A stretch of DNA of 64,000 nt from Candidatus Poribacteria bacterium (GCA_965242965.1 OZ251518.1:3776001-3840000); one strand, 5' to 3'; shown: positions 1-16,300, numbered from the stretch's first letter. Numbers and translations are program-made. The notes: generated by a model from the sequence alone, not told the origin.

Positions 1-266
1 CCTATCGCCTCATCAGGCAGCAGTTTGATAAGTGCTTCAAACGCCGCAATAGCCTTAGACGGTTGAGATTCTTCCAGATACGCAAGCCCCAGATTCTGAT
101 GTCGGACAGCGTTCTCAATGATTTCAGAGTTGTCCATCTTTTGCGCGATAGTAGCACCAACTGAAGTTAACCAGAGCAGCAGTGCGCACCATACGACGCA
201 TCGTAAGCGCAATGTCGTAGAACAGGCACCTGCCCTACCGTTTGAACGTGATAAAGTCAGTTCCAT
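1..266 (-). CDS. TPR-containing exported protein, N-terminal part (runs off the window)
   Basis: Manual translation: MELTLSRSNGRAGACSTTLRLRCVVWCALLLWLTSVGATIAQKMDNSEIIENAVRHQNLGLAYLEESQPSKAIAAFEALIKLLPDEAI. The ATG overlaps the upstream stop (TAATG) and follows a GAGGAGG RBS. Hydrophobic signal followed by a TPR pattern. Confidence 0.7.
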   Translation of the reverse strand, partial: MELTLSRSNGRAGACSTTLRLRCVVWCALLLWLTSVGATIAQKMDNSEIIENAVRHQNLGLAYLEESQPSKAIAAFEALIKLLPDEAI

Positions 267-526
267 TATTCCTCCTCTTTCCCAATGTCCTCGCCAGCCA
301 TCAGAATCGCCTGTCGGAGTGCGTTCCGCCGGTGCTTCAGCGAGTCCTCCAGCCCCTTCAGATGCAGGAGCCAAGAGTCTTTCGATTCGCCCTCCGCCGT
401 GCCAAATCCATCAGTCATCGCGAGGCGGATATATTTCAACCGTTCAGTCTGAAGCACCTTGACTTGTGCGTCATAGTCTTCAATGCCCGATGCAAGTAGC
501 GTAGCAAGTTCACGGATTTTTTCCAA
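266..526 (-). CDS. Hypothetical helical protein (86 aa)
   Basis: GGAGG RBS upstream; translationally coupled to the downstream TPR gene. Confidence 0.65.
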   Translation of the reverse strand: MEKIRELATLLASGIEDYDAQVKVLQTERLKYIRLAMTDGFGTAEGESKDSWLLHLKGLEDSLKHRRNALRQAILMAGEDIGKEEE

Positions 527-701
527 AGTTTGTCCTCCAGAATTAGAACTTGGACATTTTGAGATATGTTAACATTCTATTGTAGCCTATTGCGCGTTTT
601 TATGCAAATGTCAAAAAAACACCTATTTTTCATGCTCTCCGACAAGCCAGAAGCCGTCAGCGGGGCAAACTAAATGTCCTGCAAAAACCGCCGCGTTTTT
701 C

Positions 702-730
702 TTGACAAAAGAAGCATCTGGTGGTATAAT
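702..730 (+). promoter_or_regulatory. Sigma70-type promoter of R-M copy 1
   Basis: TTGACA-17 bp-TATAAT with a TG extended -10. Confidence 0.75.
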
Positions 731-768
731 GTTATTGTTCAAAAATCACGGAAAGGAAAAACCGCGTT

Positions 769-3561
769 ATGCCGCAAACCGACATCATCCAAACCATTCT
801 GAAAGACAGCAGTTACCACCTCAGTCTCTTCACGGAAACCGAGATTGAGGCGTTGCGCAAGAGAATCTTCACGCAAACGGTGGAAGATAATCCTGCCGCG
901 TTTGTCACCTGCGCTATCCGCAATAGGGCGATTCAACTGAAACCGGAAGAACTCATCCGCCAACTTTACGTGGCGCGGCTCTTGAACCAGTACGGCTATA
1001 CCCCAGACCGGGTGGCATTGGAGTATCCTGTCAGTTTTGGACGGGAACGGAAACGTGCCGATATCGTCATCGTTGACAAAGACCGGCCGGATACCCCCTA
1101 TATCATCGTTGAGGTGAAAAAGCCGAAACTCTTAGAGGGCAAAACGCAACTTCGTTCCTATTGCAACGCCACCGGCGCGCCTATCGGGGTGTGGACAAAC
1201 GGACAGCACATCTCCCACTACCACCGCAGAGAACCGAATTACTTCGAGGAGATTACCGATATTCCAAACGTGCACCAGGCACTTTCGGATATCCTAAGTG
1301 AACGTTTCACCCTCAAAAACCTCATCCTCAAGGATAAACTCTCCATGGAGCGGAAATCGTTGAAGGACATTGTCTTGGAACTAGAAGACGAAGTCCTCTC
1401 CAATGCGGGGGTTGATGTCTTCGAGGAAGTCTTCAAACTCATTTTTGCCAAACTCTACGATGAGTTTAAGAGTCAAGAAGACAAAGCGTTTATCTCTCGC
1501 CTCCTACGGCAGAACGTGAGAATGACTGCACAAGAACAAAGCAGTGCTAACGCTCTTGATGTTGCGGACTCTGATGCCGTTAAGAAGGCAGTTGAGGAAA
1601 TTCCGAATGATGATTTTCGTGTTTTGGAATTCAGAAACACTGGGCAAACGGATGCCGAACTGAAAGCCAAAATCCAACGCCTTTTTGATGAGGCGAAAAA
1701 TCATTGGCAAGGCGTTTTTCCAGAGGCTTCAACGTTTGAACTCTCCGACAGCCATCTCGCCGTCTGCGTCTCTAGTCTGCAAGACGTAAAAATGTTCAAT
1801 TCCAATCTGCAGGTGGTAGATGAAGCGTTTGAATATCTGGTGAGCAAATCCGCGAAAGGCGAAAAGGGACAATACTTCACGCCGCGTCATGTCATCGACA
1901 TGTGCGTGAAAATGCTCAATCCGCAGCCCGGCGACTCCATGATTGATACCGCCGCCGGGAGCTGTGGATTTCCGGTACATACGATTTTCAAACTCACCGG
2001 CACCTTGTTTAGCACGGGCGATATCGCTGCGGCGGACAAGCAGCATATCCGCAAGGTGTTTGGCATTGACTTTGACGAGAAGACGGTGCGCGTTGCGCGG
2101 ACGCTCAATCTAATTGCAGGCGATGGCGAGGCGAATGTGTTGCACCTGAATACGCTAGACTATGAACGCTGGAGTGACTGGACAGAACGCGATAAACAGT
2201 GGATTATCACCTATAGTGGTGGGTTCAAGCGGTTGGAAGGCTTCAGAGCCGAGCCTGGGGAAAACCGGCGGTTTCACTTTGATATCCTCATGGCAAATCC
2301 ACCGTTCGCGGGGGACATTAAGGAACGCCGCATCTTGCAACGGTATCGCCTTGGTTCTAAGCCAAACGGCAAAATGCAGACCAAGGTTGGGCGCGATGTG
2401 TTGTTTATTGAGCGGAATTTAGATTTCCTCAAACCGGGTGGACGGATGGCGATTGTCCTTCCCCAAGGAAAATTTAGTGCCCCTATGCACCGACATATCC
2501 GCGAATTTATCATGGAGCAGGCGCGCATCTTGGCTGTCGTCAGTTTGCATGAGAATACGTTCAAACCGCACACCAGTCCCAAAACGAGTCTCTTATTCGT
2601 GCAAAAATGGAACGATGAACCGGGCCAGGGCCCGCTGTGCCCAAAGGTGGATAACTATCCTATTTTCTTCGCCGTGAGCGAAAAAGGCGGCAAAGATACC
2701 TCCGGCAACTATATCTATTTCAAAGATGGTGACGGTGACTGCAAGTTCGACAAAAATGGGCATCTCACTGTTGCGCATGATTTGCACAATCACGATGGTG
2801 AACTGCCTGATGGCATCGCTGAGTCTTTCATGGCGTGGGCGAAACGGGAGAACCTCTCTTTTTGGCAATCCAATAATTCAACGGAGTGGGCTCCCATCCC
2901 CGGTCTCACGTTTGAGAAGGATTACGTCAATGTCCAGTCTGCCGGGCGTATTGACGCGGATTATTTCCAGCCGAAATACGAGCGAATTGAAGCGGCGATT
3001 AAGAGATATCCGCAGGGGTATACCCGCATTCGCGACGAATTTGAGCACAACAAAAGCACCTTCAACATTGAACCGGAGAAAGTGTATCGCTACGTAGAAA
3101 TCGGGAGCGTCAATCCGGTTACCGGGGATATCACCGCTCAGGAGGTGTTGGGCAAAGATTTGCCGGCGAATGCAAAGCGCGTGCTGAGAAAGGGGGACAT
3201 CATCGTCTCGAAAGTCCGCACCTACCGAGGCGCGATTACCATTGTCCAAGAAGATGGGTATGTCGGCAGCGGCGCGTTTTGTGTCTTGCGAGAAAATGGA
3301 CGGGTTAACAAGGAGACGTTGCTTTCGTGTTTATGCTCAGACGTTTTTCTACCCTGGTCTTTGAAACCGAGCACCGGCACCTCCTATCCTATCTTGGATG
3401 ACGATGACATTCTGGATTTTCCGATTCCGTTGCTCTCTCCAGCGGAGCAGGCGCAGATTAAACAAAGTGTCACAGCATCCTTTGACTTGCTGCGGGAATC
3501 CAAAGCGTTGCGGCTGCGGTGTAAGCAGGCGATGGAAATCGCGATGGGGCTAGAAGATTAA
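769..3561 (+). CDS. Restriction-modification enzyme copy 1: HsdR_N-like PD-(D/E)XK nuclease, gamma-class amino-MTase and a fused single TRD (half-HsdS)
   Basis: PEELIRQ/RADIV/IIVEVKK nuclease motifs; GQYFTPRHVI, DTAAGSCGF and NPPF MTase motifs; C-terminal RIDADYFQP, TRD and S-type spacer helix. Confidence 0.9.
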   Translation: MPQTDIIQTILKDSSYHLSLFTETEIEALRKRIFTQTVEDNPAAFVTCAIRNRAIQLKPEELIRQLYVARLLNQYGYTPDRVALEYPVSFGRERKRADIVIVDKDRPDTPYIIVEVKKPKLLEGKTQLRSYCNATGAPIGVWTNGQHISHYHRREPNYFEEITDIPNVHQALSDILSERFTLKNLILKDKLSMERKSLKDIVLELEDEVLSNAGVDVFEEVFKLIFAKLYDEFKSQEDKAFISRLLRQNVRMTAQEQSSANALDVADSDAVKKAVEEIPNDDFRVLEFRNTGQTDAELKAKIQRLFDEAKNHWQGVFPEASTFELSDSHLAVCVSSLQDVKMFNSNLQVVDEAFEYLVSKSAKGEKGQYFTPRHVIDMCVKMLNPQPGDSMIDTAAGSCGFPVHTIFKLTGTLFSTGDIAAADKQHIRKVFGIDFDEKTVRVARTLNLIAGDGEANVLHLNTLDYERWSDWTERDKQWIITYSGGFKRLEGFRAEPGENRRFHFDILMANPPFAGDIKERRILQRYRLGSKPNGKMQTKVGRDVLFIERNLDFLKPGGRMAIVLPQGKFSAPMHRHIREFIMEQARILAVVSLHENTFKPHTSPKTSLLFVQKWNDEPGQGPLCPKVDNYPIFFAVSEKGGKDTSGNYIYFKDGDGDCKFDKNGHLTVAHDLHNHDGELPDGIAESFMAWAKRENLSFWQSNNSTEWAPIPGLTFEKDYVNVQSAGRIDADYFQPKYERIEAAIKRYPQGYTRIRDEFEHNKSTFNIEPEKVYRYVEIGSVNPVTGDITAQEVLGKDLPANAKRVLRKGDIIVSKVRTYRGAITIVQEDGYVGSGAFCVLRENGRVNKETLLSCLCSDVFLPWSLKPSTGTSYPILDDDDILDFPIPLLSPAEQAQIKQSVTASFDLLRESKALRLRCKQAMEIAMGLED

Positions 3562-3706
3562 AACGCCGCGTTTTTTAGTTTGCCATTTTTTAGTTTTTGT
3601 GGTATCCTATAATTGCTTGGGTTCGTGAAACGGCCGCGGCGAAAAGGCGGCACTCGGCCCTGGCACAGTGTATGACTGAGCGCGTCGCGTTCACTTGCGT
3701 TGAAAC
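3541..3706 (+). repeat. Direct repeat copy A (gene end, promoter and leader), paired with 6661-6825
   Basis: Near-identical gcgatggggctagaagattaaaacgccgcg...ttcacttgcgttgaaac; contains TTGCCA-17 bp-TATCCT with a TG extended -10. Confidence 0.9.
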
Positions 3707-3707
3707 T

Positions 3708-3860
3708 TGTAGGTCAGGATCGCCAGATCCTGACCTGTTCGGGAGCGGGCGCTCCCGAACTACAGAGGTGGGCCCGAGGCATTCCGGTAGGAGGGACCTC
3801 CTTGTCCCGATACGCACCACATCGAGACCAGGAGGTCTCTCCTACTGGGAAGACATTGAT
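3708..3860. repeat. GTAG-REP cluster between R-M copies 1 and 2
   Basis: Modules gtaggtcaggatcgccagatcctgacc, gttcgggagcgggcgctcccgaactac, gtaggagggacctccttgtcccgat and atcgagaccaggaggtctctcctac; absent from the paralogous region after copy 2. Confidence 0.85.
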
Positions 3861-3882
3861 CAGTTAATCAGGGAACGTAGTT

Positions 3883-6681
3883 ATGCCGCAAACCGACATC
3901 ATCCAAACCATTCTGAAAGACAGCAGTTACCACCTCAGTCTCTTCACGGAAGCCGAGATTGAGGTATTACGCGAGCGAGTCGTGACGCAAACAGTCAGCG
4001 GCAAGCAGACAGCATTCGTGAACTGCGCCGTTCGGAATAAGGCGATTCAACTGAAACCGGAAGAACTCATCCGCCAACTTTACGTGGCACGGCTCCTGAA
4101 CCAGTACGGCTACACCCCAGACCGGGTGGCTCTGGAGTATCCTGTCAGTTTTGGCCGGGAGACGAAGCGCGCCGATATCGTCATCCGCGATAAAGATTGG
4201 CCGGATACTCCCTATCTTATCGTAGAGGTGAAGAAGCCGAAGTTGCAGGATGGCAAGGCACAACTCCGCTCCTATTGTAATGCCACCGGCGCGCCTATCG
4301 GGGTGTGGACAAACGGACAGCACATCTCCCACTACCACCGCAAAGACCCGAACTACTTTGAGGAAATCACCGATATTCCGAGCGCGAACCAAAGTCTCGC
4401 GGACATCCTCAACGAACGGTTTACCTTGAAGGACCTGATTCTCAAGGACAAACTCGTCTCGGCACGGAAATCCTTAAAGGACATCATTTTGGAATTGGAG
4501 GATGAAGTCCTCGCCAACGCCGGTGTAGACGTGTTTGAGGAAGTCTTCAAACTCATCTTTACTAAACTCTACGATGAGTTTAAGAGCCAAGAAGACAAAA
4601 CGTTTATCAACCGCATCCTCCAGCCAAAAACGGCCATCGCGAGCAAAGGTGAAAACGGGACTTACGCGCCTAACAGTCCGGATTATGAGACTATCAAGCG
4701 GGCGATTGAAGGGATTCCTGACGATGGTTACTTTCGGGTTTTGGCGTTCAGAAACACTGGGCAAACGGATGCCGAACTGAAAGCCAAAATCCAACGTCTT
4801 TTTGATGACGCGAAAAATCATTGGCAAGGTGTTTTTCCAGAGGGTTCAACGTTTGAACTCTCCGACAGCCATCTTGCTGTCTGCGTCTCCAGTTTGCAGG
4901 ATGTGAAGTTATTTGACTCAAATCTGCAGGTAGTCGATGAGGCGTTTGAATATCTGGTGAGCAAATCCGCGAAAGGGGAAAAGGGACAATACTTCACGCC
5001 GCGCCATGTCATCGACATGTGCGTGAAAATGCTCAATCCACAGCCCGGCGACTCCATGATTGATACCGCCGCCGGGAGTTGTGGGTTTCCGGTGCATACG
5101 ATTTTCAAACTCACCGGCACCTTGTTTCCTGCAGGCGACAGCACGCCGGCGGACAAGCGACATATCCGCAAGGTGTTTGGTATTGACTTTGACGAGAAGA
5201 CGGTGCGCGTTGCGCGGACGCTCAACCTGATTGCGGGTGATGGCGAGGCGAATGTGTTGCACCTGAACACGCTTGACTATGAACGCTGGAGCGACTCGAC
5301 AGAACGCGATAAACAGTGGATTATCACCTATAGCGGTGGGTTCAAGCGGTTGGAAGGCTTCAGAGCCGAGCCTGCGGAAGACCGGCGGTTTTCCTTTGAC
5401 ATCCTCATGGCAAATCCCCCTTTTTCTGGTGAGATTAAGGAGAGCCGCATCCTACATCAATACCGCCTCGGCTTTAAGCCAAACGGCAAAGCGCAAGCCA
5501 GGGTGAAGCGCGATATTTTGTTCATTGAGCGGAATTTGGATTTCCTCAAGCCGGGTGGACGGATGGCGATTGTGCTACCCCAAGGCAGGTTCAACAATCC
5601 TTCCGACAAATATATCCGCGATTTTATTGCCGAGCGTGCTCGCATATTGGCTGTTGTCGGATTGGACATTAACGTGTTCAAACCGCACACCGGCACGAAA
5701 ACCAGCGTGCTGTTTGTCCAAAAGTGGAACGATAACGCCGCTGATGGGCCTCTATGTCGCAAAGTAGATGACTACCCCATCTTCTTCGCCGTGAGTGAAA
5801 AAGGTGGCAAGGATACCTCCGGCGACTATATCTATCTCGAAAATGGTGATGGAGATTACAAACTCGACAAAAACAGGCATCTCATTGTTGCGCATGATTT
5901 GCACAATCACGATGGTGAACTGCCTGATGGCATCGCCGAGTCTTTCATGGCGTGGGCGAAACAGGAGAACCTCTCTTTTTGGCAATCCAACGATGCAGCG
6001 CAATGGGCTCCCATCCCCGGTCTCACGTTTGAGAAGAATTACGCCGATGTCCAGCACGCTGAACGGATTGACGCAGACTACTTCCAACCGAAATATGATG
6101 ACATCGTGAATGCCATCCAAACCTACCCAGGCGGCTGGGATACCCTCGGAAATCTCGTTCAGTTAGAGGACACCATTTTCAGGCATGCGCGAGAAACCGA
6201 ATACCGGTATATTGAACTTGCCAATATCGGAGCCAATGGCGAGATAACCGGTTGTATGACAGCATTAGGGAAAGATTTGCCGAGCCGCGCACGTCACTTA
6301 GTCAGCACCGGAGATGTCATTGTTTCATCCATAGAAGGCTCTCTGGATAGCATCGCCTTGATTCCAGAGGAATATGACGGGGCCCTCTGTTCAACAGGTT
6401 TCCATGTGATTCGCTCAGATACGCTGGATTCGGAAGTGCTGTTCGCCTTCTTGAAAAGTTGCGCCGGGCAGTTGCAGCTCAAGAAAGGGTGTAGCGGGAC
6501 AATCCTGACTGCCATTAACAAGGCGGAATTCCGTAAGGTGATTTTACCCAAAATTACGGCGGAAAAGCAGGCGGAAATCCGGCAGCAAGTCGCTCAGGCT
6601 GTGAACTTGCGCCGGCAGGCTAACGCGTTACTGGCAGGGAGCACTCAGGCGGTGGACATTGCGATGGGGCTAGAAGATTAA
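3883..6681 (+). CDS. Restriction-modification enzyme copy 2: nuclease, MTase and a different fused single TRD
   Basis: Same motifs as copy 1; the TRD core is strongly diverged from that of copy 1. Confidence 0.9.
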   Translation: MPQTDIIQTILKDSSYHLSLFTEAEIEVLRERVVTQTVSGKQTAFVNCAVRNKAIQLKPEELIRQLYVARLLNQYGYTPDRVALEYPVSFGRETKRADIVIRDKDWPDTPYLIVEVKKPKLQDGKAQLRSYCNATGAPIGVWTNGQHISHYHRKDPNYFEEITDIPSANQSLADILNERFTLKDLILKDKLVSARKSLKDIILELEDEVLANAGVDVFEEVFKLIFTKLYDEFKSQEDKTFINRILQPKTAIASKGENGTYAPNSPDYETIKRAIEGIPDDGYFRVLAFRNTGQTDAELKAKIQRLFDDAKNHWQGVFPEGSTFELSDSHLAVCVSSLQDVKLFDSNLQVVDEAFEYLVSKSAKGEKGQYFTPRHVIDMCVKMLNPQPGDSMIDTAAGSCGFPVHTIFKLTGTLFPAGDSTPADKRHIRKVFGIDFDEKTVRVARTLNLIAGDGEANVLHLNTLDYERWSDSTERDKQWIITYSGGFKRLEGFRAEPAEDRRFSFDILMANPPFSGEIKESRILHQYRLGFKPNGKAQARVKRDILFIERNLDFLKPGGRMAIVLPQGRFNNPSDKYIRDFIAERARILAVVGLDINVFKPHTGTKTSVLFVQKWNDNAADGPLCRKVDDYPIFFAVSEKGGKDTSGDYIYLENGDGDYKLDKNRHLIVAHDLHNHDGELPDGIAESFMAWAKQENLSFWQSNDAAQWAPIPGLTFEKNYADVQHAERIDADYFQPKYDDIVNAIQTYPGGWDTLGNLVQLEDTIFRHARETEYRYIELANIGANGEITGCMTALGKDLPSRARHLVSTGDVIVSSIEGSLDSIALIPEEYDGALCSTGFHVIRSDTLDSEVLFAFLKSCAGQLQLKKGCSGTILTAINKAEFRKVILPKITAEKQAEIRQQVAQAVNLRRQANALLAGSTQAVDIAMGLED

Positions 6682-6825
6682 AACGCCGCGTTTTTTTGTT
6701 TGCCATTTTTGTCTTTTTGTGGTATCCTATAATTGCCTGGGTTCGTGAACGGCCGCAGCGAAAAGGCGGCACTCGGCCCTGGCGCGATGCATGCTTGAGC
6801 GCGTCGCGTTCACTTGCGTTGAAAC
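6661..6825 (+). repeat. Direct repeat copy B (promoter and leader upstream of R-M copy 3)
   Basis: Paralogous to 3541-3706. Confidence 0.9.
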
Positions 6826-6939
6826 ACGCAACTCACAAAAAACGGCGGCAGTCAACTTGCGGTTCGGTGCTGCAACGCCGATGAGTTGAGGTGTAGGCAT
6901 TCTTAATCAGCCCACAAAAAGGAGGCATCCGGATAACCC

Positions 6940-9054
6940 ATGATAGCGAAAGACATCATCAGAGACATCCTGAGGGATAGCGATTACCATCTTGACCTTT
7001 TCACAGAAACCGAGGTTCGGGCTTTACGCGAAAGAATCTATACCGAAACGGTGAAGGGTAAGGAGACGTATTGCATTAGCTGCGCTGTTCGGAATAAGGT
7101 GGTTCAGTTGAAACCCGAAGAACTGATTCGCCAACTCTACGCAACACGGTTGATTGAGACATACGGCTACCCCAAAACGCGATTGGCCTTTGAATACTCT
7201 GTCAGTTTCGGCCGGGAGACGAAGCGCGCTGATATCGTCATCCGCGATAAAGATTGGCTGGATACTCCCTACATTATCATAGAGGTGAAGAAGCCGAAAC
7301 TTGCAGCAGGGAAAAATCAACTCCGTTCCTATTGCAATGCCACCGGCGCGCCTATCGGTGTGTGGACAAACGGTGAAAAGATTTCGCACTACCACCGCAA
7401 AGACCCGAATTACTTTGAGGAAATCACCGATATTCCGAGCGCGAACCAAAGTCTCGCGGACATCCTCAACGAACGGTTTACGTTGAAAGACCTGATTCTC
7501 AAGGACAAACTCGTCTCGGCGCGGAAATCCTTAAAGGACATCATTTTGGAATTGGAGGATGAAGTCCTCGCCAACGCCGGTGTAGATGTTTTTGAGGAAG
7601 TCTTCAAACTCATTTTTACCAAACTCTACGACGAGTCACTGAGCGAAGAAGACAAAACGTTTATCAACCGCGTCCTGCGGCGGAAAACCGGTGCCGCTCT
7701 CCAAGAGGATGACACGCCTTACACGCCTAATAGCCCAAATTATGATGCGATAAAGAGGGCTGTCGAAGCAATCCCTGACGATGGTGACTTTCGCGTCATG
7801 GCGTTCAGAAACACCGGGCAAACCGATGCTGAACTAAAAAAGAAAATTCAACGCCTCTTTGACGAAGCGAAAAACCATTGGAAGGGTGTCTTTCCGGAGG
7901 GTGAAACGTTTCAACTCTCGGACAGTCATCTCGCCGTCTGCGTCTCTAGTTTGCAGGATGTCAAGTTGTTCAACTCAAATCTGCAGGTGGTAGACGAGGC
8001 GTTTGAATATCTAGTGAGCAAATCCGCAAAGGGAGAAAAAGGACAGTATTTCACGCCGCGCCACGTCATTGACATGTGCGTGAAAATGCTCAATCCGCAG
8101 CCCGGCGAATATATGATCGATACGGCTGCCGGAAGTTGCGGATTTCCCGTGCATACCCTTTTCAAACTCACCGGGCATTTGTTCACCAATGCCGAAATAT
8201 CCGAAGAAGATAAGCAGCATGTCCTCAAAGTGTTCGGCATTGACTTTGACGAAAAGACTGTCCGAGTGGCGCGAACCCTTAACTTAATCGCGGGCGACGG
8301 CGAGACCAATGTCCTGCATCTTAACACATTAGATTATGAACGTTGGAACGAAAGAACCGTCGGCGACCCGAGATGGATTATCACCTACGGCAGAGGGTTT
8401 GATCGGTTGAAGGCGTTAAGAGCGGAACAAGACGAAAACAAGCGGTTCAACTTTGATATCCTCATGGCCAATCCCCCGTTTGCTGGAGATATTAAGGAAC
8501 GGCGCATTTTGCAACAGTACCGCCTCGGCTTTAAACCGAACGGCAAAGCGCGAACCAAAGTCGGACGCGACATTCTGTTTATTGAGCGGAACCTTGATTT
8601 CCTTAAACCCGGTGGACGGATGGCGATAGTGCTACCACAAGGCCGCCTCAACAACACATCTGAAAAGTATATCCGCGATTTTATCGCCGAGCACACGCGA
8701 ATCCTCGCTGTCGTTGGTTTGAATCGGAACACTTTTAAACCACACACCGGCACCAAAACCAGCGTTTTGTTCCTCCAAAAATGGAACGACGACCCGAGCA
8801 AGGGACCGCTCTGCCCCAGAGTTGATGACTACCCAACCTTTTTGGCCATCAGTGAAAAAGGCGGAAAGGATAACTCGGGCGAGTATGTTTGCCTCACAAA
8901 TCAAAACGGACAACCCAAGTTGGACGAAAATGGACATCTCATTGTTGAGCATGACCTGCACAATCACAATGGTGAACTGCCCGATGGCATCGCCGAAGCC
9001 TTTATTGAATGGGCGAAAAGCGAAAAGTTGTCCTTTTGGGAAGACACCGAATGA
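6940..9054 (+). CDS. Restriction-modification subunit copy 3 (nuclease and MTase, no TRD); BcgI-alpha/type IIB-like
   Basis: Same nuclease and MTase motifs; ends at LSFWEDTE, where copies 1 and 2 continue into the S part. AGGAGG RBS. Confidence 0.9.
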   Translation: MIAKDIIRDILRDSDYHLDLFTETEVRALRERIYTETVKGKETYCISCAVRNKVVQLKPEELIRQLYATRLIETYGYPKTRLAFEYSVSFGRETKRADIVIRDKDWLDTPYIIIEVKKPKLAAGKNQLRSYCNATGAPIGVWTNGEKISHYHRKDPNYFEEITDIPSANQSLADILNERFTLKDLILKDKLVSARKSLKDIILELEDEVLANAGVDVFEEVFKLIFTKLYDESLSEEDKTFINRVLRRKTGAALQEDDTPYTPNSPNYDAIKRAVEAIPDDGDFRVMAFRNTGQTDAELKKKIQRLFDEAKNHWKGVFPEGETFQLSDSHLAVCVSSLQDVKLFNSNLQVVDEAFEYLVSKSAKGEKGQYFTPRHVIDMCVKMLNPQPGEYMIDTAAGSCGFPVHTLFKLTGHLFTNAEISEEDKQHVLKVFGIDFDEKTVRVARTLNLIAGDGETNVLHLNTLDYERWNERTVGDPRWIITYGRGFDRLKALRAEQDENKRFNFDILMANPPFAGDIKERRILQQYRLGFKPNGKARTKVGRDILFIERNLDFLKPGGRMAIVLPQGRLNNTSEKYIRDFIAEHTRILAVVGLNRNTFKPHTGTKTSVLFLQKWNDDPSKGPLCPRVDDYPTFLAISEKGGKDNSGEYVCLTNQNGQPKLDENGHLIVEHDLHNHNGELPDGIAEAFIEWAKSEKLSFWEDTE

Positions 9055-9084
9055 CAGTTAAAAGAGACTGTCCTGGACGGACGA

Positions 9085-10515
9085 GTGAAGGTGCATTATT
9101 CAATCGTGAATTACGCCGAGATTGCCGAAAACTCCGATTTTAGGCTAGCGGCGGAGTATTATCATCCCGTCAGTTTGGCTATTCATCGCAAAATCAGGGA
9201 TAGCGGCGGCATCTCTTTTTTTCAGTGCCTCACGAAATTCTCATCCGGGAAAAACCTGCCGCAAACTCCGACTGGCAAATTCAAGTTCATTAGAACCCAA
9301 AATGTCAGGACTATCCTCGTCAGCGATAACGGAATGAGTCATACCGATAGGGCAGACGAATTAACTGAAATCGGGGAATTGCTTTTTGTGAGAGTCGGGG
9401 ATGTTGGCGATAGTTCTGTCGTCACGCCCACCTCGGCCAACAGCACGGTGAGTGATAATGTGCTACGGCTAAAAGTCACAGGAATAAACCCGTTTTTCTG
9501 CTCGGTTTTCTTTAATTCCACAGTCGGGCAGACATATTTCAAAAGAGTCTTCAAGGGCACTAGCCAAGGGTTAATTAGCCGCGAAAATTTCAGGGACATC
9601 CTCATCCCGCAATTCTCGGAAAAATTCCAAAATGCAATGGAATTTTTCTGTCTGGAAGCGGATTCTCTGCACCAGCAGAGCGTTCTCAAGTCCAGTGATG
9701 CCGAAAAACTGTTACTTGTTGAACTTAACCTCGCCAACTGGCAGCCGAAACCACAACTCGCCTTCGTCAAAAACTATTCGGATGTTCAGGGGGCAGAACG
9801 CTTTGACGCAGACTACTTCCAACCCAGATACGATGACATCGTCAACGCTATTAAAGGCTATCCGGGAGGTTGGGATACGTTAGGAAACCTCGTCACGTTG
9901 GAAAAGTGCGTTGAGGTGGGTAGCCGGAAATACCGGGAGACAGGCATCCCCTTCGTGCGCGTGAGCAATCTGAGTCCGTTTGAAATCACGCACGAGAAAT
10001 ACATCTCGGAAGAGTTGTACGCGGAACTTGAGCAACACCAACCGAAACAGGGAGAAATCCTGCTCAGCAAGGATGCAACACCCGGCATCGCGCATCATCT
10101 GCGCGAACAGCCGACTAAAATGATTCCCGCAGGCGGCATCCTCCGATTGAAGCACAAATCCGAACTCGTCCGAACTGCCTATCTGACGCTAGTACTCAAT
10201 TCGATTTTGGGGCAAGAACAGGTGAGTCGCGATGTGGGAGGTTCGGTAATTCCGCATTGGCGGCCATCTCAGGTGGCAGAAACGCTCATTCCTATTCTGC
10301 CTGATGAGAAGCAGGCGGAGATCGAGCGGAAAGTCACCGAATCCTTTAACCTGCGCCAACAATCCAAGCACCTGTTGGAATGCGCAAAACGCGCCGTGGA
10401 CATCGCAATTGAGGCGGATGAAGAGACGGCTCTGAGATGGTTGGAAACCGGCTCCAAATCTACCAACGCTGCACCGGGAGTGCTTCGATTTCCTCAAAAT
10501 GCGCATCCCGCGTAA
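9085..10515 (+). CDS. hsdS: Restriction specificity subunit S with two TRDs
   Basis: FRLAAEYY-TRD1-helix, then RFDADYFQP-TRD2-PDEKQAEI helix; lies directly after the R-M subunit. Confidence 0.88.
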   Translation: MKVHYSIVNYAEIAENSDFRLAAEYYHPVSLAIHRKIRDSGGISFFQCLTKFSSGKNLPQTPTGKFKFIRTQNVRTILVSDNGMSHTDRADELTEIGELLFVRVGDVGDSSVVTPTSANSTVSDNVLRLKVTGINPFFCSVFFNSTVGQTYFKRVFKGTSQGLISRENFRDILIPQFSEKFQNAMEFFCLEADSLHQQSVLKSSDAEKLLLVELNLANWQPKPQLAFVKNYSDVQGAERFDADYFQPRYDDIVNAIKGYPGGWDTLGNLVTLEKCVEVGSRKYRETGIPFVRVSNLSPFEITHEKYISEELYAELEQHQPKQGEILLSKDATPGIAHHLREQPTKMIPAGGILRLKHKSELVRTAYLTLVLNSILGQEQVSRDVGGSVIPHWRPSQVAETLIPILPDEKQAEIERKVTESFNLRQQSKHLLECAKRAVDIAIEADEETALRWLETGSKSTNAAPGVLRFPQNAHPA

Positions 10516-10526
10516 CACAGGTACTT
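10460..10526 (-). pseudogene. C-terminal remnant of a VapC/PIN toxin
   Basis: Encodes CVTRDAHFEEIEALPVQRW-stop, a typical PIN C-terminus (LVTRDxHF...W). It is in frame with the upstream antitoxin once the intervening element is removed. Confidence 0.65.
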
Positions 10527-11304
10527 GAGGGGGTTTCATAAATCCCCGTAGGAGAGACCTCCTGGTCTCGATGCAATCGGGCGGCGCGCCTACCGGGGCC
10601 GCGGCGGCAGAAAGCCCCCCTCATCGTAGGGCGAGGGCCCTCGCATGCCATCTGCGCATGCGAGTGGGTTTCCCTCGCCATCGTCCGCGCAATTCAACGA
10701 TCGCGGGGGACAGGCCCCCGCACTACAAAAAAAACGGTCCTTCACCGTAGGGCGAGGGCCTGTCCCTCGCCATCGCTCGCGCTACGCAAAAAACGTCTTT
10801 TGTTCTCTTAGGTCCGTAGGACCTTAATGTCTATAGCACTCGGCGATCCGAAGAGCTCTAAGGTCCTTTAGGTCCTTAATGTGTTTTGCCATGCGGCGCG
10901 TGTTTTTATTAAGGACCTAAAGGACCTTGAAAACAAGACGACACGTGTATCTATAGACATTAAGGTCCTAAAGGACCTAAAACGCATCGTGACGATGGAC
11001 GCTCGCGGGGGACAGGCCCCCGCGCTACGGGCGGAGAAAATCCCCTCCTTCATCGTAGGGCGAGGGCCTGTCCCTCGCCAGCGTCCGCTCGCCAGGCCCT
11101 GTAGGTCAGGATCGCCTGATCCTGACCTGTTTGTGATCAGGCGATCACAAACTACAGATGGGGAAACACGCATCGTGACGCTGGACAACGCGGGGACAGG
11201 CCCCCGCGCTACGGGAACATCGAGACCAGGAGGTCTCTCCTACCGAGAAGAAATCGAGCACCGAGGTCTCTCCTACCGAACACATCGAAATATGAAACAC
11301 CCTC
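10527..11304. mobile_element. Non-autonomous TIR element (MITE-like) filled with GTAG-REP modules, copy 1
   Basis: Ends GAGGGGGTTTCATA...TATGAAACACCCTC; flanking duplication AGGTACTT/AGGTAATT (7/8 match). Confidence 0.85.
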
Positions 11305-11536
11305 AGGTAATTACCGTTCTGAAGCATTGCCCTGCCCCCCACTCTTCCTCAATTGCTTGCTTCATTTCTGCAATGTCTTCCGGCGGAAACAGGCCTACCA
11401 ATTTGACCAGGTCTTTCCCCGGGGTGCCCTTGATTGGTTCGCCGAGGAGGTCGCGTGTGTAATCCAATACCTGCTTCTGTTGCATCGGCGAGAGTTTATC
11501 AAGCCGCGTCAGGAGTTCGTGTTTCACATTGTCCAT
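11303..11536 (-). CDS. DUF2281-like putative antitoxin with an altered C-terminus
   Basis: LDKLSPMQQKQVLDY...GTPGKDLVKLVGLFPPEDIAEMKQAIEE pattern; AGGAGG RBS; its stop codon is formed at the element junction. Confidence 0.65.
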   Translation of the reverse strand: MDNVKHELLTRLDKLSPMQQKQVLDYTRDLLGEPIKGTPGKDLVKLVGLFPPEDIAEMKQAIEEEWGAGQCFRTVIT

Positions 11537-11607
11537 TGCAATGCCTCCTTAAAAACCATTTGATAGCCATTTTACCATACCCTATATGAAAAAACAATGA
11601 AAAAACC

Positions 11608-11637
11608 TTGACAAAACGTCCTGTCATAGTGTAAAAT
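11608..11637 (+). promoter_or_regulatory. Sigma70-type promoter
   Basis: TTGACA-18 bp-TAAAAT upstream of the PhyH gene. Confidence 0.55.
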
Positions 11638-11703
11638 TTAGTAATCTCTATAAACGTTGCACTTCGCTGGAGTGCTTCATCGGAAGAATTACGGAGGTTT
11701 ACC

Positions 11704-12486
11704 ATGCTTACGCAAGCCCAGGTTGATTTTTATCACGAAAACGGCTACCTCAAAGTGGAGCAACTCTTCACACCGGAGGAAACGAACGAGCTCGCATCTG
11801 AAATGGTGCGCATTATTAACAACTGGGGACAGGAGACGATCGGCTGGCCCGGCCCCTGGCGCACACGCTACCTCAAAGCGGAAGACCAGGATACGACGAA
11901 GGCTGTCTTCATGCATAACCCGCATTTCTATTCGGCTACGTGGGGACGCGTGATTTTCCACGAACGGCTGACGGGTGCAGTGCAATCGCTCATCGGCGAC
12001 ACTATCCAGTGGCACCACACCGTGCTGCACGCCAAGCCGCCGGAAAAAGGCACGCCGTTCCCGATGCATCAGGACTATCCCTTCTACCCACACGATGGGC
12101 TTGACTTCGTGGATTGCCTCGTGCATCTTGACGACGCGCCTTTTGAGAGCGGCGCACTGCGGGTAGTCCCCGGCAGCCATAAGGAAGGACCGCGGGAGCA
12201 TATCACGGGTGAAGGCACCGCGCCTCATCTGCCTACCGATAAGTATCATCCGGATTTCCTAGACTCTCTCCCGATTCCGGCGAAGGCAGGCGATGTGATT
12301 TTCTTCAGTTATTGCCTCATACACTGGTCAGAGGTGAATCAGACGGAGCAGTGGCGGAAGGCGGTGCGCTTCGGGTATCATAAACCGGATATGCGTCCTG
12401 TCGGCCGCGCCCCGGAGGAGGCCTACAACAACATTGTTGCAGGCGGTTTCAAGGTGAACCCGGCGGAACGGGAGCTGCTCGCCTAG
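11704..12486 (+). CDS. Phytanoyl-CoA dioxygenase (PhyH) family Fe(II)/2-oxoglutarate dioxygenase
   Basis: FYHENGYL, KPP...HQDY, GALRVVPGSH and GDVIFF...H motifs. Confidence 0.9.
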   Translation: MLTQAQVDFYHENGYLKVEQLFTPEETNELASEMVRIINNWGQETIGWPGPWRTRYLKAEDQDTTKAVFMHNPHFYSATWGRVIFHERLTGAVQSLIGDTIQWHHTVLHAKPPEKGTPFPMHQDYPFYPHDGLDFVDCLVHLDDAPFESGALRVVPGSHKEGPREHITGEGTAPHLPTDKYHPDFLDSLPIPAKAGDVIFFSYCLIHWSEVNQTEQWRKAVRFGYHKPDMRPVGRAPEEAYNNIVAGGFKVNPAERELLA

Positions 12487-13324: not shown

Positions 13325-16300
13325 TTATTTCCGTTTTTTCAGTTCCCCCAACGTCGTCAAATGCCGGTTGACAGCAGAGAAATGCCCTCTCATTTGCCGC
13401 GTCGCTAACAATTGGCGCGCACCCATAAGCGAGACATCCTCAAGCCGATAGTAGTATTCAATCCCCGGCTTCGCCGTTTTATCAACGAAGGTGTAATCTG
13501 TCCGCTCACCTGTCGTGCCGGCACCGGGGATGAGCCTCGGCGTGATAGACGTAAACTTCCCGTCGCCCGTTTCGCTCCGCAGGATGTTGAATCCGGCATT
13601 GTCCAACTCCGATGCGGTGTGCCACGTGAGCAGCACACCTGACTCGGCGCGAACAGCGCGGAAGTGCGCTAACTCCACAGGCAACGGCCCGCCGCGCCGA
13701 TAGCCCGGTGTGCCGATATCCTCCGGATGCCCATAATAGGTGTTGACATCCTTGATAGTGAGACTCGCGGCGTTCACCCAGCCGGAACGCTTCGTGCCAT
13801 CGGCGGGGAGCCCTTTCCGATAACGGCGGATTATTGAACTACGGCGGCCTTCTTCCCTTCCTGCTGGCAATTGCCACATCGGTGCGTTTTCCGCCAAGTT
13901 ACCCACCTCATCGACTAAAGTGCCTTCGCTGTCGCTGAGTGTCAGCGTGAATCCAGCGGGGCTCAACACCGTATCGCGTTGGTTTTTCATGCCGAGTGCG
14001 GCGCGATGCGCCTCGTTGTAATAGAGGCTATACCGCCGCGCCGAGGGAAAATGTTCCTCGCCGGAATTGCGACTCCCTGCAGAGAAAATGAGGAGCGTCT
14101 GATTGGGGAGCACTATCCGCTTTTCCAACGTCAACACTGCCTTCAGTTTCCCGCGAAATTCGTCGGCATCGGCATTCTGTATCTCCAGTGTCCAGCCTTT
14201 CAGGTTCACCGCCTGCGTTTGCGAACTGTTGTATAACTCTATCCACTGCGGCAGCCTGCCGTTACTACCCGCGGCGAACATCATTTCACTGACACTCACG
14301 GTGGCATCGTCAGCGAAGTCAGACGCTTTAGACTTCACGGCATCGTTAGGATATCCCGGTGTGCCGCCCGTTGCCCAAGAGACACGCACCTGCCTGTCAT
14401 AGCCGAGGCCCGTCGGGCCCGCTTTCTCCCACGCGGTTTTATGATACCCGACGACGGTGGCTTTGTCGCGCCGCCAAACGGCATCGGCGACGAGGGCTTC
14501 TTCGGTGTTGCCGCCGGGATGCCGCGTGTTCTTCAACGGCCAGATGTCCGTTTGGAAGGTTCTGGCAGTGTCGGCGATGAATGCATCGGTATCCGTGCCG
14601 CCGCCACCGGCCACATCGATGATGTTCGCCGATTTACCGTTCTGATTGCGGGCATTGCGGAGAATCAACAGGAATTGCCCATCGTTCGGAATGCGGAGTT
14701 TCGGTGCTACCAGATACAGATGCGTTGCGCCTTTCTTTTTCCCGGTCGCGTCAGGTGCTTTAGCGATGTTTTCACCGGCAGCAAGGTGCGTTTTACCCGG
14801 CGCGGTATTCGTCACCAATAAAATGCCGTTGGCGGGAAGACTATATTGCGCGCCATTTGGGATTTCGACGAGCGATTTATCCGCTTTTTCGTCATCCGCA
14901 ATGATGCTGATTTCCCAGTTTTTGAGCGGCACGGGTTTGCTCGTGACGTTGCGGAGTTCAATCCAATCATTTTCATCGTCGCTGCCATTGCCGATTTCAT
15001 TGAAAACGATAGGCGTGCGTGGCACGCGGGTTCTTGAGACGCGGGGGAGCCCGCCGCCTCCGCCTCCGCCGCCACCACCACCTCCTCCGCCACCAGAGGA
15101 TGCTTGGGTGACAGGTTCGGGTTCCGGTTCAGGTTCCGGCTCAGGTTCCGGTTCAGGTGTGCCGATAATCGGAATGTTCAGGATAGGCGGCGCATCGCCT
15201 GTCGAAATTTGAAGCGGCGTTTCCAACGGCGCATCCGGCGATAAATTCTGCGCGCGTTTGGCGGCCATCACCACAGAATTCCCATCACCGTCAACGATGT
15301 CAGAACCGACAGGAATCGTTAAACTATTCGGTTTAGGACTCACATACTGCGCATTATCCGCGCTCGTCACGGTATAAACGAATGTCACCAACGTTGAGTT
15401 CGTGTCTTCTTGCCGCGCCCAATACGCCTGCCGTTCATTTGAACCGACATAGAGGAGAATATAGGGCGGCGTGCCGGTGTATCTGACGTTGTCTTCGTCA
15501 AACGTTGCTTGCACCTCAATGACGCTTCCGGCGGTATATTGAGCGGGTGGATTCGGCGGGAATTGGAAACTGCCGGTGATGGCAGGTGGGGAGACATCCC
15601 ACGGCACAACAAGGTTTTTGCTCATATCCAAGGCGTAAGCATTCCCCGATGCCTTCGTCACACTGCCGTGATGGAGATTGAAAGTGAAAGTGCCCTCGCT
15701 TGTAGGCGTGACAGTCACCGTCCAGATATGCTGAATCACATCCGTATGAACAGGTGCACTGAGGGTTGCGGTTGCGTTGTCCTCAGCGATGAGGTTGACA
15801 TCTTCAACAGTGAATGCACCGGGGCCCGTGGTTGCGAGGGCACCCGAAAAACGGAAGGCCACGTCAAAAGTCGGCAGATTCGTAGTTTGCTGCACATTCA
15901 CGAGGGTAATTGATTCCAGCGTCAGCACCTGCGAGTCTCCCGACGTTGCCGCAGCGCATGCAACGAGAGCAGAACAGCCAGACCAGGGGCTTGTGCCTTC
16001 AGCGTTTCGGGCGCGCACCTGCACCTGATACGCCGAGTCTTGGTTTAAACCGGTGAGTATCGCTGTGGTGCTAGCATCAGCGTGATATACATCTATCCAA
16101 TCGCCCGTGGCCCCCTCGCGGTATTGAACATCGTAGCCGGTTATCTCCGGGCCGGTGTTTGCGGGTGCTGTCCATGTCACGTGTAGACTCGTAGCGGACA
16201 AAGAGAGCACTGTCGGTGCAAAGGGAGTTGAGGGAGGCTCTGCCACATCTGTAACGGTGACGACGATGATTTTGCTGACGCTCTTCGCGCGTCCATCGGT

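Follow-up and report, generated by a model that had tools for sequence, protein, structure and literature searches.

Part of the literature on BcgI and BsaXI (passages of PMC4081073 and PMC11997821) assigns these restriction–modification enzymes the stoichiometry (RM)2S, with nuclease and methyltransferase in one RM chain and a separate specificity (S) subunit, and the second source describes, in the section concerned, an M.EcoKI-like methyltransferase with a lone C-terminal helix for most RM+S Type IIB enzymes. HaeIV, a one-chain Type IIB/IIG enzyme written 2R~M~[GAY] and recognising GAY N5 RTC, is presented in portions of PMC4081073 and PMC3874165 as a homodimer with two copies of one specificity domain, and the latter source, in its treatment of truncated S subunits of EcoR124I and EcoDXXI, gives homodimers acting on palindromic sites. 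Here we describe a 64,000-nucleotide stretch (the window) of the genome of a Candidatus Poribacteria bacterium (GCA_965242965.1, OZ251518.1:3776001-3840000), in which three paralogous nuclease-methyltransferase genes and one S gene stand in tandem. The array is real, rare and composed of three intact units, and the fused and two-subunit designs that it combines are both already described. The fused design is not new, since the HaeIV-type architecture, R~M joined to one target recognition domain (TRD), has been published; and because each unit follows a described design (RM plus S, or RM fused to one TRD), the locus is mostly a result of annotation. As a whole it is probably best explained as three self-contained restriction–modification units, the third copy and S being BcgI/BsaXI-like and the two fusions HaeIV-like homodimers.

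Gene content of the locus

Four open reading frames (ORFs), all on the + strand, occupy positions 769–10515 of the window, in agreement with the coordinates of the preliminary description of this DNA:

769..3561, + strand: copy 1, nuclease-methyltransferase with TRD1 and a terminal helix, 930 aa
3883..6681, + strand: copy 2, nuclease-methyltransferase with a different TRD (TRD2) and a terminal helix, 932 aa
6940..9054, + strand: copy 3, unfused nuclease-methyltransferase subunit (RM), 704 aa
9085..10515, + strand: S, two-TRD specificity subunit, 476 aa, GTG start, 30 nt past copy 3

All three long proteins carry an N-terminal PD-(D/E)xK nuclease domain (Pfam HSDR_N_2, residues 59–166, E 1e-26 to 2e-27) followed by a methyltransferase domain (Pfam N6_Mtase, residues ~350–618, E 1e-32 to 6e-35); the values for copy 3 are 1.9e-27 and 5.6e-35. 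Residues D98, E115 and K117, those of the S-adenosylmethionine-binding motif I, and the NPPF motif are unchanged across the three paralogs and 24 homologs. The paralogs share 72–79% amino acid identity (72% and 73% against copy 1 over the alignment), and over about 2.1 kb of nucleotide sequence copies 1 and 2 are 83% identical, copies 1 and 3 75%, and copies 2 and 3 79%. By gene content all three would be complete restriction–modification enzymes. No helicase-type family was detected among the 12 ORFs around the locus or the upstream genes scanned (about 10 kb upstream and 14 kb downstream).

The intact frames, each with both domains, bear out the three paralogous nuclease-methyltransferase genes of the preliminary description, and the separate two-TRD HsdS that it placed after copy 3 is the 476-aa ORF, which matches the PADLOC model Specificity_I in two stretches (E 8e-31). 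Its statement that copy 3 stops at LSFW needs correction, as the protein ends four residues later, in LSFWEDTE. Copies 1 and 2 do run past LSFW through a short linker into sequence matching the second half of S, both peptides quoted for this being present, and they do keep the terminal spacer helix.

Recognition domains and fused tails

The junction between RM and tail in copies 1 and 2 is a 12-residue linker, followed by a tail of about 230 residues that begins at about nt 2866 in copy 1 and nt 5983 in copy 2; the extension past the RM core (229–230 aa) equals half of S in length. Between the copy 2 tail and the C-terminal half of S identity is 38% over 232 residues (E 4e-40), and this tail also aligns to the other half (E 3e-05); the copy 1 tail matches the C-terminal half with 29% identity (E 4e-21). 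Both fusion tails match the solved S subunits 5ybb_D and 3okg_A (E 2.5e-14, residues 771–922). Each consists of a single TRD and one terminal helix, the first TRD and the central helix being missing, and in an alignment with full-length RM-S fusions the junction falls where their central helix ends. Most simply, the half-fusions would have arisen by loss of these two parts.

The locus was said to carry four different TRDs, and their cores indeed share just 20–31% identity in pairwise comparison. At the nucleotide level the variable TRD block of the fusions (~2982–3484 in copy 1, ~6099–6604 in copy 2) is bracketed by conserved flanks, and the last 77 nt of the two genes plus the next 145 nt are 86% identical. 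The terminal helices of copies 1 and 2 are identical at 18 of 41 residues (counted by hand on the alignment); the last seven residues are the same in both proteins, and the two helices have their hydrophobic positions (I, V, L, A-L, A, I) in common.

TRD2 occurs on the fused proteins P0005–P0010 with 82–94% identity, and a more distant form of it is the C-terminal TRD in full RM-S fusions. Recognition domains move between the two fused backbones, since P0006 and P0008 pair a copy 1-like core (91–92%) with TRD2 (91–94%).

Single-chain full RM-S fusions of the same family were also seen, in P0017 (1178 aa), P0088 (1129 aa) and P0145 (1225 aa). Identity of the RM cores to the window copies is 56–75%, and their C-terminal TRDs resemble either TRD2 (56–65%) or the C-terminal TRD of the window's S (71%, in P0145).

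Model of the tail dimer

Modelling of a heterodimer of copies 1 and 2 had been suggested in the preliminary description, and the pair of tails passed its controls, scoring 0.74 against 0.14 for the best control. The mark itself is reached by 51 of 78 solved complexes and by 2 of 108 mismatched pairs. Contacts agreed between runs to at least 70%, and the partner had a predicted local distance difference test score (pLDDT) of at least 77. The modelled interface is formed by antiparallel helices, residues 893–928 of one chain and 895–931 of the other, and the contacts fall at equivalent positions in both, with the same offset of 2 as in the alignment. Dimerisation of the tails via their terminal helices is plausible in the light of this model.

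Family assignment

The RM parts score 921–948 bits on PDLC03034, a Type I-like PADLOC model built from REBASE-type 'Type I methyltransferases', versus 85–90 bits on the PADLOC model REase_MTase_IIG, to which the matches are weak (E 7e-25 to 3e-26); the latter model is not the best description of the chain. RM.BsaXI (8w0p_A) is the closest solved chain, with a match confined to residues 502–616 of the methyltransferase core (E 5.6e-22). For S, neither Pfam (E <= 0.01, Methylase_S included) nor the PDB gave a match.

The best NCBIfam matches are to MAD2 for all three RM parts (293 bits, cut-off 720) and to MAD5 for S (127 bits, cut-off 400; E 1e-36). Membership of MADS (methylation-associated defense system) was considered and rejected, as these scores lie far under the curated cut-offs and the neighbourhood holds no other MADS genes. 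A classical Type I system with separate HsdR, HsdM and HsdS was also set aside: the methyltransferase bears its own nuclease, and there is no HsdR gene nearby.

Neighbouring genes were scanned at 28 related loci, covering 66 of 150 neighbouring ORFs on the downstream side only, with L041 and L046 left out. An ORF of 437–550 aa with a Pfam Methylase_S match comes after the RM gene in 21 of the 28, and four further loci have an ORF of 463–469 aa that lacks a Pfam match and resembles the window's S. None of the 66 downstream ORFs encodes a helicase-type subunit. Since these loci mostly show an RM gene and then an S-size ORF, with no helicase subunit, the family is a two-gene RM+S system of BcgI-like architecture, and the two-subunit arrangement that had been put forward for copy 3 and S is supported. 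Some relatives in the databases carry only the name 'N-6 DNA methylase'.

Small genes often sit between RM and S in related loci, encoding a DUF4145 protein in L031, L042, L050 and L017, a PIN protein in L060 and a Fic protein in L080. An OLD-like AAA_21/AAA_15 ATPase of 393–401 aa lies just after S in L024, L026, L034, L043 and L044. Some of these RM+S loci may be larger, MADS-like systems.

Distribution among relatives

The family is common in the phylum, with 83 positive genomes among 176 and 25 among the 61 nearest; relatives with a title are mostly metagenome-derived genomes of Candidatus Poribacteria. Fused frames of at least 900 aa are present in six of the 176 genomes (G000, G002, G017, G120, G141 and G161, that of G120 with an internal stop). 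Two of the 80 related loci, taken as one genome per species, are fused (L061, and L079, which is split), and none has a second RM copy in the flanking DNA examined. The best 120 protein clusters comprise ten half-fusions (923–937 aa), two full RM-S fusions and otherwise unfused proteins of 693–750 aa.

Adjacent copies occur in just two of the 176 genomes, namely G000 (three) and the same-genus G002 (two), so that the tandem array is rare. The two fusion types are found together in none of the 175 other genomes and none of the 80 loci. A metagenome scan with the junction and tail of copy 2 returned 33 loci, among them no further copy 2-type fusion or array; the best matches (64–65% identical) begin past the junction and are therefore S genes.

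Intact fusions in G017, G141, G161 and locus L061 are solitary, with no other RM or S match in the flanking DNA examined. Because such fusions stand alone, a partner gene is not needed, and the fusions of the window, although beside other units, would likewise be independent.

Short contigs from four public metagenome runs (sponge and other sources, four studies) contain pieces of TRD1, of TRD2 and of the copy 3/S junction. Joints among the matches listed, such as 3845 to 10745, are uninformative on the array, because their sides are shorter than 30 letters and lie inside a dispersed repeat.

History of the array

Within the same genus, G002 carries the gene order fusion (941 aa), RM (712 aa), DUF4145 and S (462 aa). 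Its fusion is the ortholog of copy 1 (RM core 89% identical, TRD 88–96% at the nucleotide level) and its RM gene that of copy 3 (81%). The downstream flank is common to G002 and the window, with 88% identity in the C-terminal half of S and 92% in PhyH, and L029 has a single RM+S pair followed by a PhyH gene. From the shared flank and the RM+S-PhyH order of L029 it follows that the site is old and that a fusion already lay upstream in the genus.

The fusions are 79–95% identical to one another and 74–79% identical to copy 3, with a synonymous divergence (dS) from copy 3 of 1.0–1.4; they form a lineage of their own, older than this locus. The preliminary description had seen here the capture of a transition from subunit to fusion. 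That claim does not hold: the fusion event is not recorded here, since the fused proteins are a separate lineage that has an orthologous member in G002 and stands alone in other genera. Copy 2 is the extra gene of the array; in the RM core it shares 95% identity with the metagenomic protein P0005.

The copies are mosaics. Copies 1 and 2 show 93–97% nucleotide identity in several blocks, and copies 2 and 3 reach 96–98% at alignment codons 161–220, where the protein stretch is identical, versus 63–91% elsewhere. The near-identical tract between copies 2 and 3 points to recent gene conversion between neighbours:

4330..4580, + strand: putative gene-conversion tract in copy 2, limits approximate, partner in copy 3 at ~7387–7635

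Purifying selection acts on every copy, with a ratio of non-synonymous to synonymous substitution (dN/dS) of 0.10–0.16 in all pairs of RM cores and of 0.19 when the copy 1 tail is compared with that of the G002 ortholog.

These data suggest an order of events, which we infer as follows. The array would have grown at an ancestral RM+S site, with one fusion upstream already in the ancestor of the genus. The second fusion, together with the 145-nt element downstream of it, would have been gained through a duplication or an unequal recombination event involving another allele, and TRD cassettes would have been swapped between the conserved flanks.

Promoters, spacers and repeats

The regions outside the genes hold the following features:

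702..730, + strand: promoter-like site (sigma-70-type) before copy 1, TTGACA, 17 nt, TATAAT, with TG before the second hexamer, 12/12 matches
3562..3706, + strand: 145-nt locus-specific element, copy A, directly 3′ of the copy 1 stop, containing the weak site 3580–3608
3707..3860, no strand assigned: dispersed repeat resembling a miniature inverted-repeat transposable element, between copies 1 and 2, at least 50 genome matches of 86–98% identity
6682..6825, + strand: 145-nt locus-specific element, copy B, 3′ of copy 2, containing the weak site 6700–6728
10516..10880, no strand assigned: dispersed repeats downstream of S, many copies across the genome

Each nuclease-methyltransferase gene had been credited with a putative promoter of its own. 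This stands for copy 1, whose site is the sole perfect promoter-like match in positions 300–11000, and is weaker for copies 2 and 3, whose sites have 9/12 matches each; the scan as a whole gave 11 sites against 8.8 +/- 3.3 in shuffles, which is not above chance. Both weak sites fall inside the 145-nt elements. The two elements are 91% identical, each has only its twin as a match in the genome, apart from two short hits of chance size, and part of the element is also preserved in G002, in the spacer that separates the fusion from the RM gene. No + strand terminator-like site lies between the genes, and read-through from the first promoter together with internal promoters is possible. Among the intergenic regions of window positions 1–12000 no RNA element matched Rfam at gathering score.

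A 31-nt inverted match (3820–3850 versus 10573–10543) was examined as a candidate recombination site and rejected; it arises because both sites carry the same dispersed repeat family, which has at least 50 copies in the genome.

The neighbours of the locus encode PhyH, a large surface protein, and TPR and FG-GAP proteins. The large protein (1985 aa, window 13325–19282, - strand) has Big_12, fibronectin type III and lamin-tail domains, and beside it are Laminin_G_3, TPR and FG-GAP/ASPIC proteins.

Interpretation and alternative explanations

We regard the array as a candidate defence locus of three paralogous, self-contained units of one Type I-like family. No translocase subunit would be needed, because the methyltransferase carries its own N-terminal PD-(D/E)xK nuclease. 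Copy 3 and S would assemble as (RM)2S, with an asymmetric bipartite site as the target. In the case of copies 1 and 2, two chains would pair via their terminal helices in antiparallel orientation; this would restore an S-like core that has one RM part per TRD, and each homodimer would read a symmetric (palindromic) bipartite site set by its own TRD. By analogy, the fusions most likely act like HaeIV. We infer the stoichiometry, the symmetry of the sites and the geometry of cleavage in this scheme.

Several observations weigh against this explanation. The methylation, cleavage and binding ascribed to the locus are predictions made from sequence alone. The similarity to RM.BsaXI stops at the methyltransferase core. 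Both fusions carry the C-terminal type of helix only, and homodimeric S subunits are, in the part of PMC3874165 that deals with them, reported for Type IC only, where the two helices are alike; the terminal helices of copies 1 and 2 agree, as noted, at fewer than half of their residues. The success of the tail model may only echo likeness to the solved S subunits, and the model of tails 1 and 2 cannot tell a homodimer from a heterodimer, because solved S subunits hold the same arrangement in one chain and close cousins pass as well. An AlphaFold2 model of full-length copy 2, built on an alignment of 24 sequences, was poor (mean pLDDT 50.9, predicted template modelling score 0.34), with the nuclease domain alone confident, and was set aside. 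Finally, no public short contig bridges the junctions between copies 1 and 2 and between copies 2 and 3.

Two single-chain enzymes with related helices in one cell raise the possibility that, beside 1/1 and 2/2, heterodimers of copies 1 and 2 form, which would methylate and restrict a hybrid asymmetric site, one half-site coming from each copy. Two genes would then yield three specificities (two palindromic, one hybrid) and the locus four, an addition to the preferred explanation that replaces nothing in it, and mobile TRD cassettes would re-set all three bipartite specificities at once. Apart from the modelled 1/2 tail pair, with its equivalent contact positions and the hydrophobic positions and last seven residues common to both helices, the likeness of the gene ends and following 145 nt agrees with this idea, both fusion genes are intact and constrained, and in EcoDXXI the wild-type specificity was regained when the N-terminal and C-terminal halves of S were expressed together. 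However, the model test is blind to which member of the family binds, and the helices are far less alike (18/41) than the RM cores (82%), a difference that may stem from insulation against cross-pairing or just from a helix travelling with its TRD. A second fusion is not required for pairing, because G002 has a copy 1-type fusion without copy 2 and the fusions of G017, G141 and G161 stand alone, and there is no second genome or related locus with both types. No natural heterodimer of RM~TRD fusions was found in the literature searched, most subscription journals lying outside it. A hybrid 1/2 specificity is plausible from the model, and cross-pairing of the fusions is a reasonable idea; that it takes place in the cell, with the consequences given above, we hold to be possible though somewhat doubtful.

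Less probable, and in our judgement unlikely, is that each fusion works as a monomeric Type IIG enzyme of the MmeI/BpuSI kind, one chain with one TRD reading a short contiguous asymmetric site and cutting on one side of it, with the terminal helix packed on its own methyltransferase tail. The design of one RM part per TRD in a single chain suits such an enzyme, solitary fusions need no partner, the REase_MTase_IIG model does match weakly, and most Type IIC RM enzymes are said in the relevant part of PMC4081073 to bind as monomers. Set against this are the roughly tenfold higher bit scores on the Type I-like model, the 74–79% identity of the RM part to copy 3, predicted partner of a two-TRD S, and the nature of the tail, an HsdS half with a 37-residue helix (893–929, in a low-confidence model) that is itself the modelled dimer interface. 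There is also no second helix before the TRD, the junction being the 12-residue linker. A locus without a working triple system, either an assembly artefact joining strain alleles or a set of redundant remnants that only methylate or are inactive, seems very improbable. The many-copy dispersed repeat at the copy 1/copy 2 junction is a typical place for a misjoin, the inter-copy junctions are unbridged, and 5–14 mismatches to the window are present in the copy 1 pieces listed for runs X7 and X8; the copy 3/S pieces listed are identical to the window in both runs, and those of copy 2 in X7. Yet the 5.7-Mb genome is in 2 contigs, the copies are 17–25% apart in nucleotide sequence, well beyond strain alleles, and the junctions are unique and ordered, with the 145-nt element, then the repeat, then the ribosome-binding region. 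The independent same-genus genome G002 (4 contigs) has a fusion directly upstream of RM, and in the window all frames are open, the catalytic motifs invariant and the dN/dS values low.

The family offers a natural test bed, as it shows separate, half-fused and fully fused architectures, with TRDs swapped between paralogous backbones, and as one genome holds two half-fused enzymes with related dimerisation helices. If cross-pairing were true, it would give a natural example of single-chain RM enzymes gaining combinatorial specificity through heterodimers. The free pairing of unjoined TRDs in one cell was raised by a review asking why S subunits are normally joined, and whether it happens bears on the engineering of Type IIB enzymes with new specificities.

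Comparison with known systems

The MADS system is described in the part of PMC13662399 concerned as an eight-gene operon with ATPase-nuclease modules, and the window locus is without these genes nearby. Half-size Type IC S subunits (EcoR124I delta-50, truncated EcoDXXI, NgoAV) are comparable to the fused tails. According to passages of PMC3874165, a TRD with its helix self-pairs in these proteins to read a palindromic bipartite site, and two different halves, when co-expressed, read a hybrid site. They are, however, free fragments that depend on M and R as separate subunits and on translocation driven by ATP, whereas the half-S of the window is covalently joined to RM.

AloI, CjeI and TstI, single-chain RMS enzymes with two TRDs, have their counterparts in the full fusions P0017, P0088 and P0145 of the same family; unlike them, the window fusions are without the first TRD and the central helix. 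Copy 3 with S resembles BcgI and BsaXI in having an RM chain with PD-(D/E)xK and NPPF motifs, the latter that of a gamma-class N6-adenine methyltransferase, a separate two-TRD S and no translocase gene nearby, although the relatedness of copy 3 to RM.BsaXI is limited to the stretch of the methyltransferase core at residues 502–616. HaeIV is a parallel to copies 1 and 2, with nuclease, gamma-class adenine methyltransferase and one specificity domain in one chain. It cuts on both sides of its symmetric bipartite site, as given in parts of PMC4081073 and PMC3874165, and copies 1 and 2 show the same order of domains. A difference from HaeIV is that the window has a tandem pair of such genes, their TRDs unlike each other, next to an unfused paralog.

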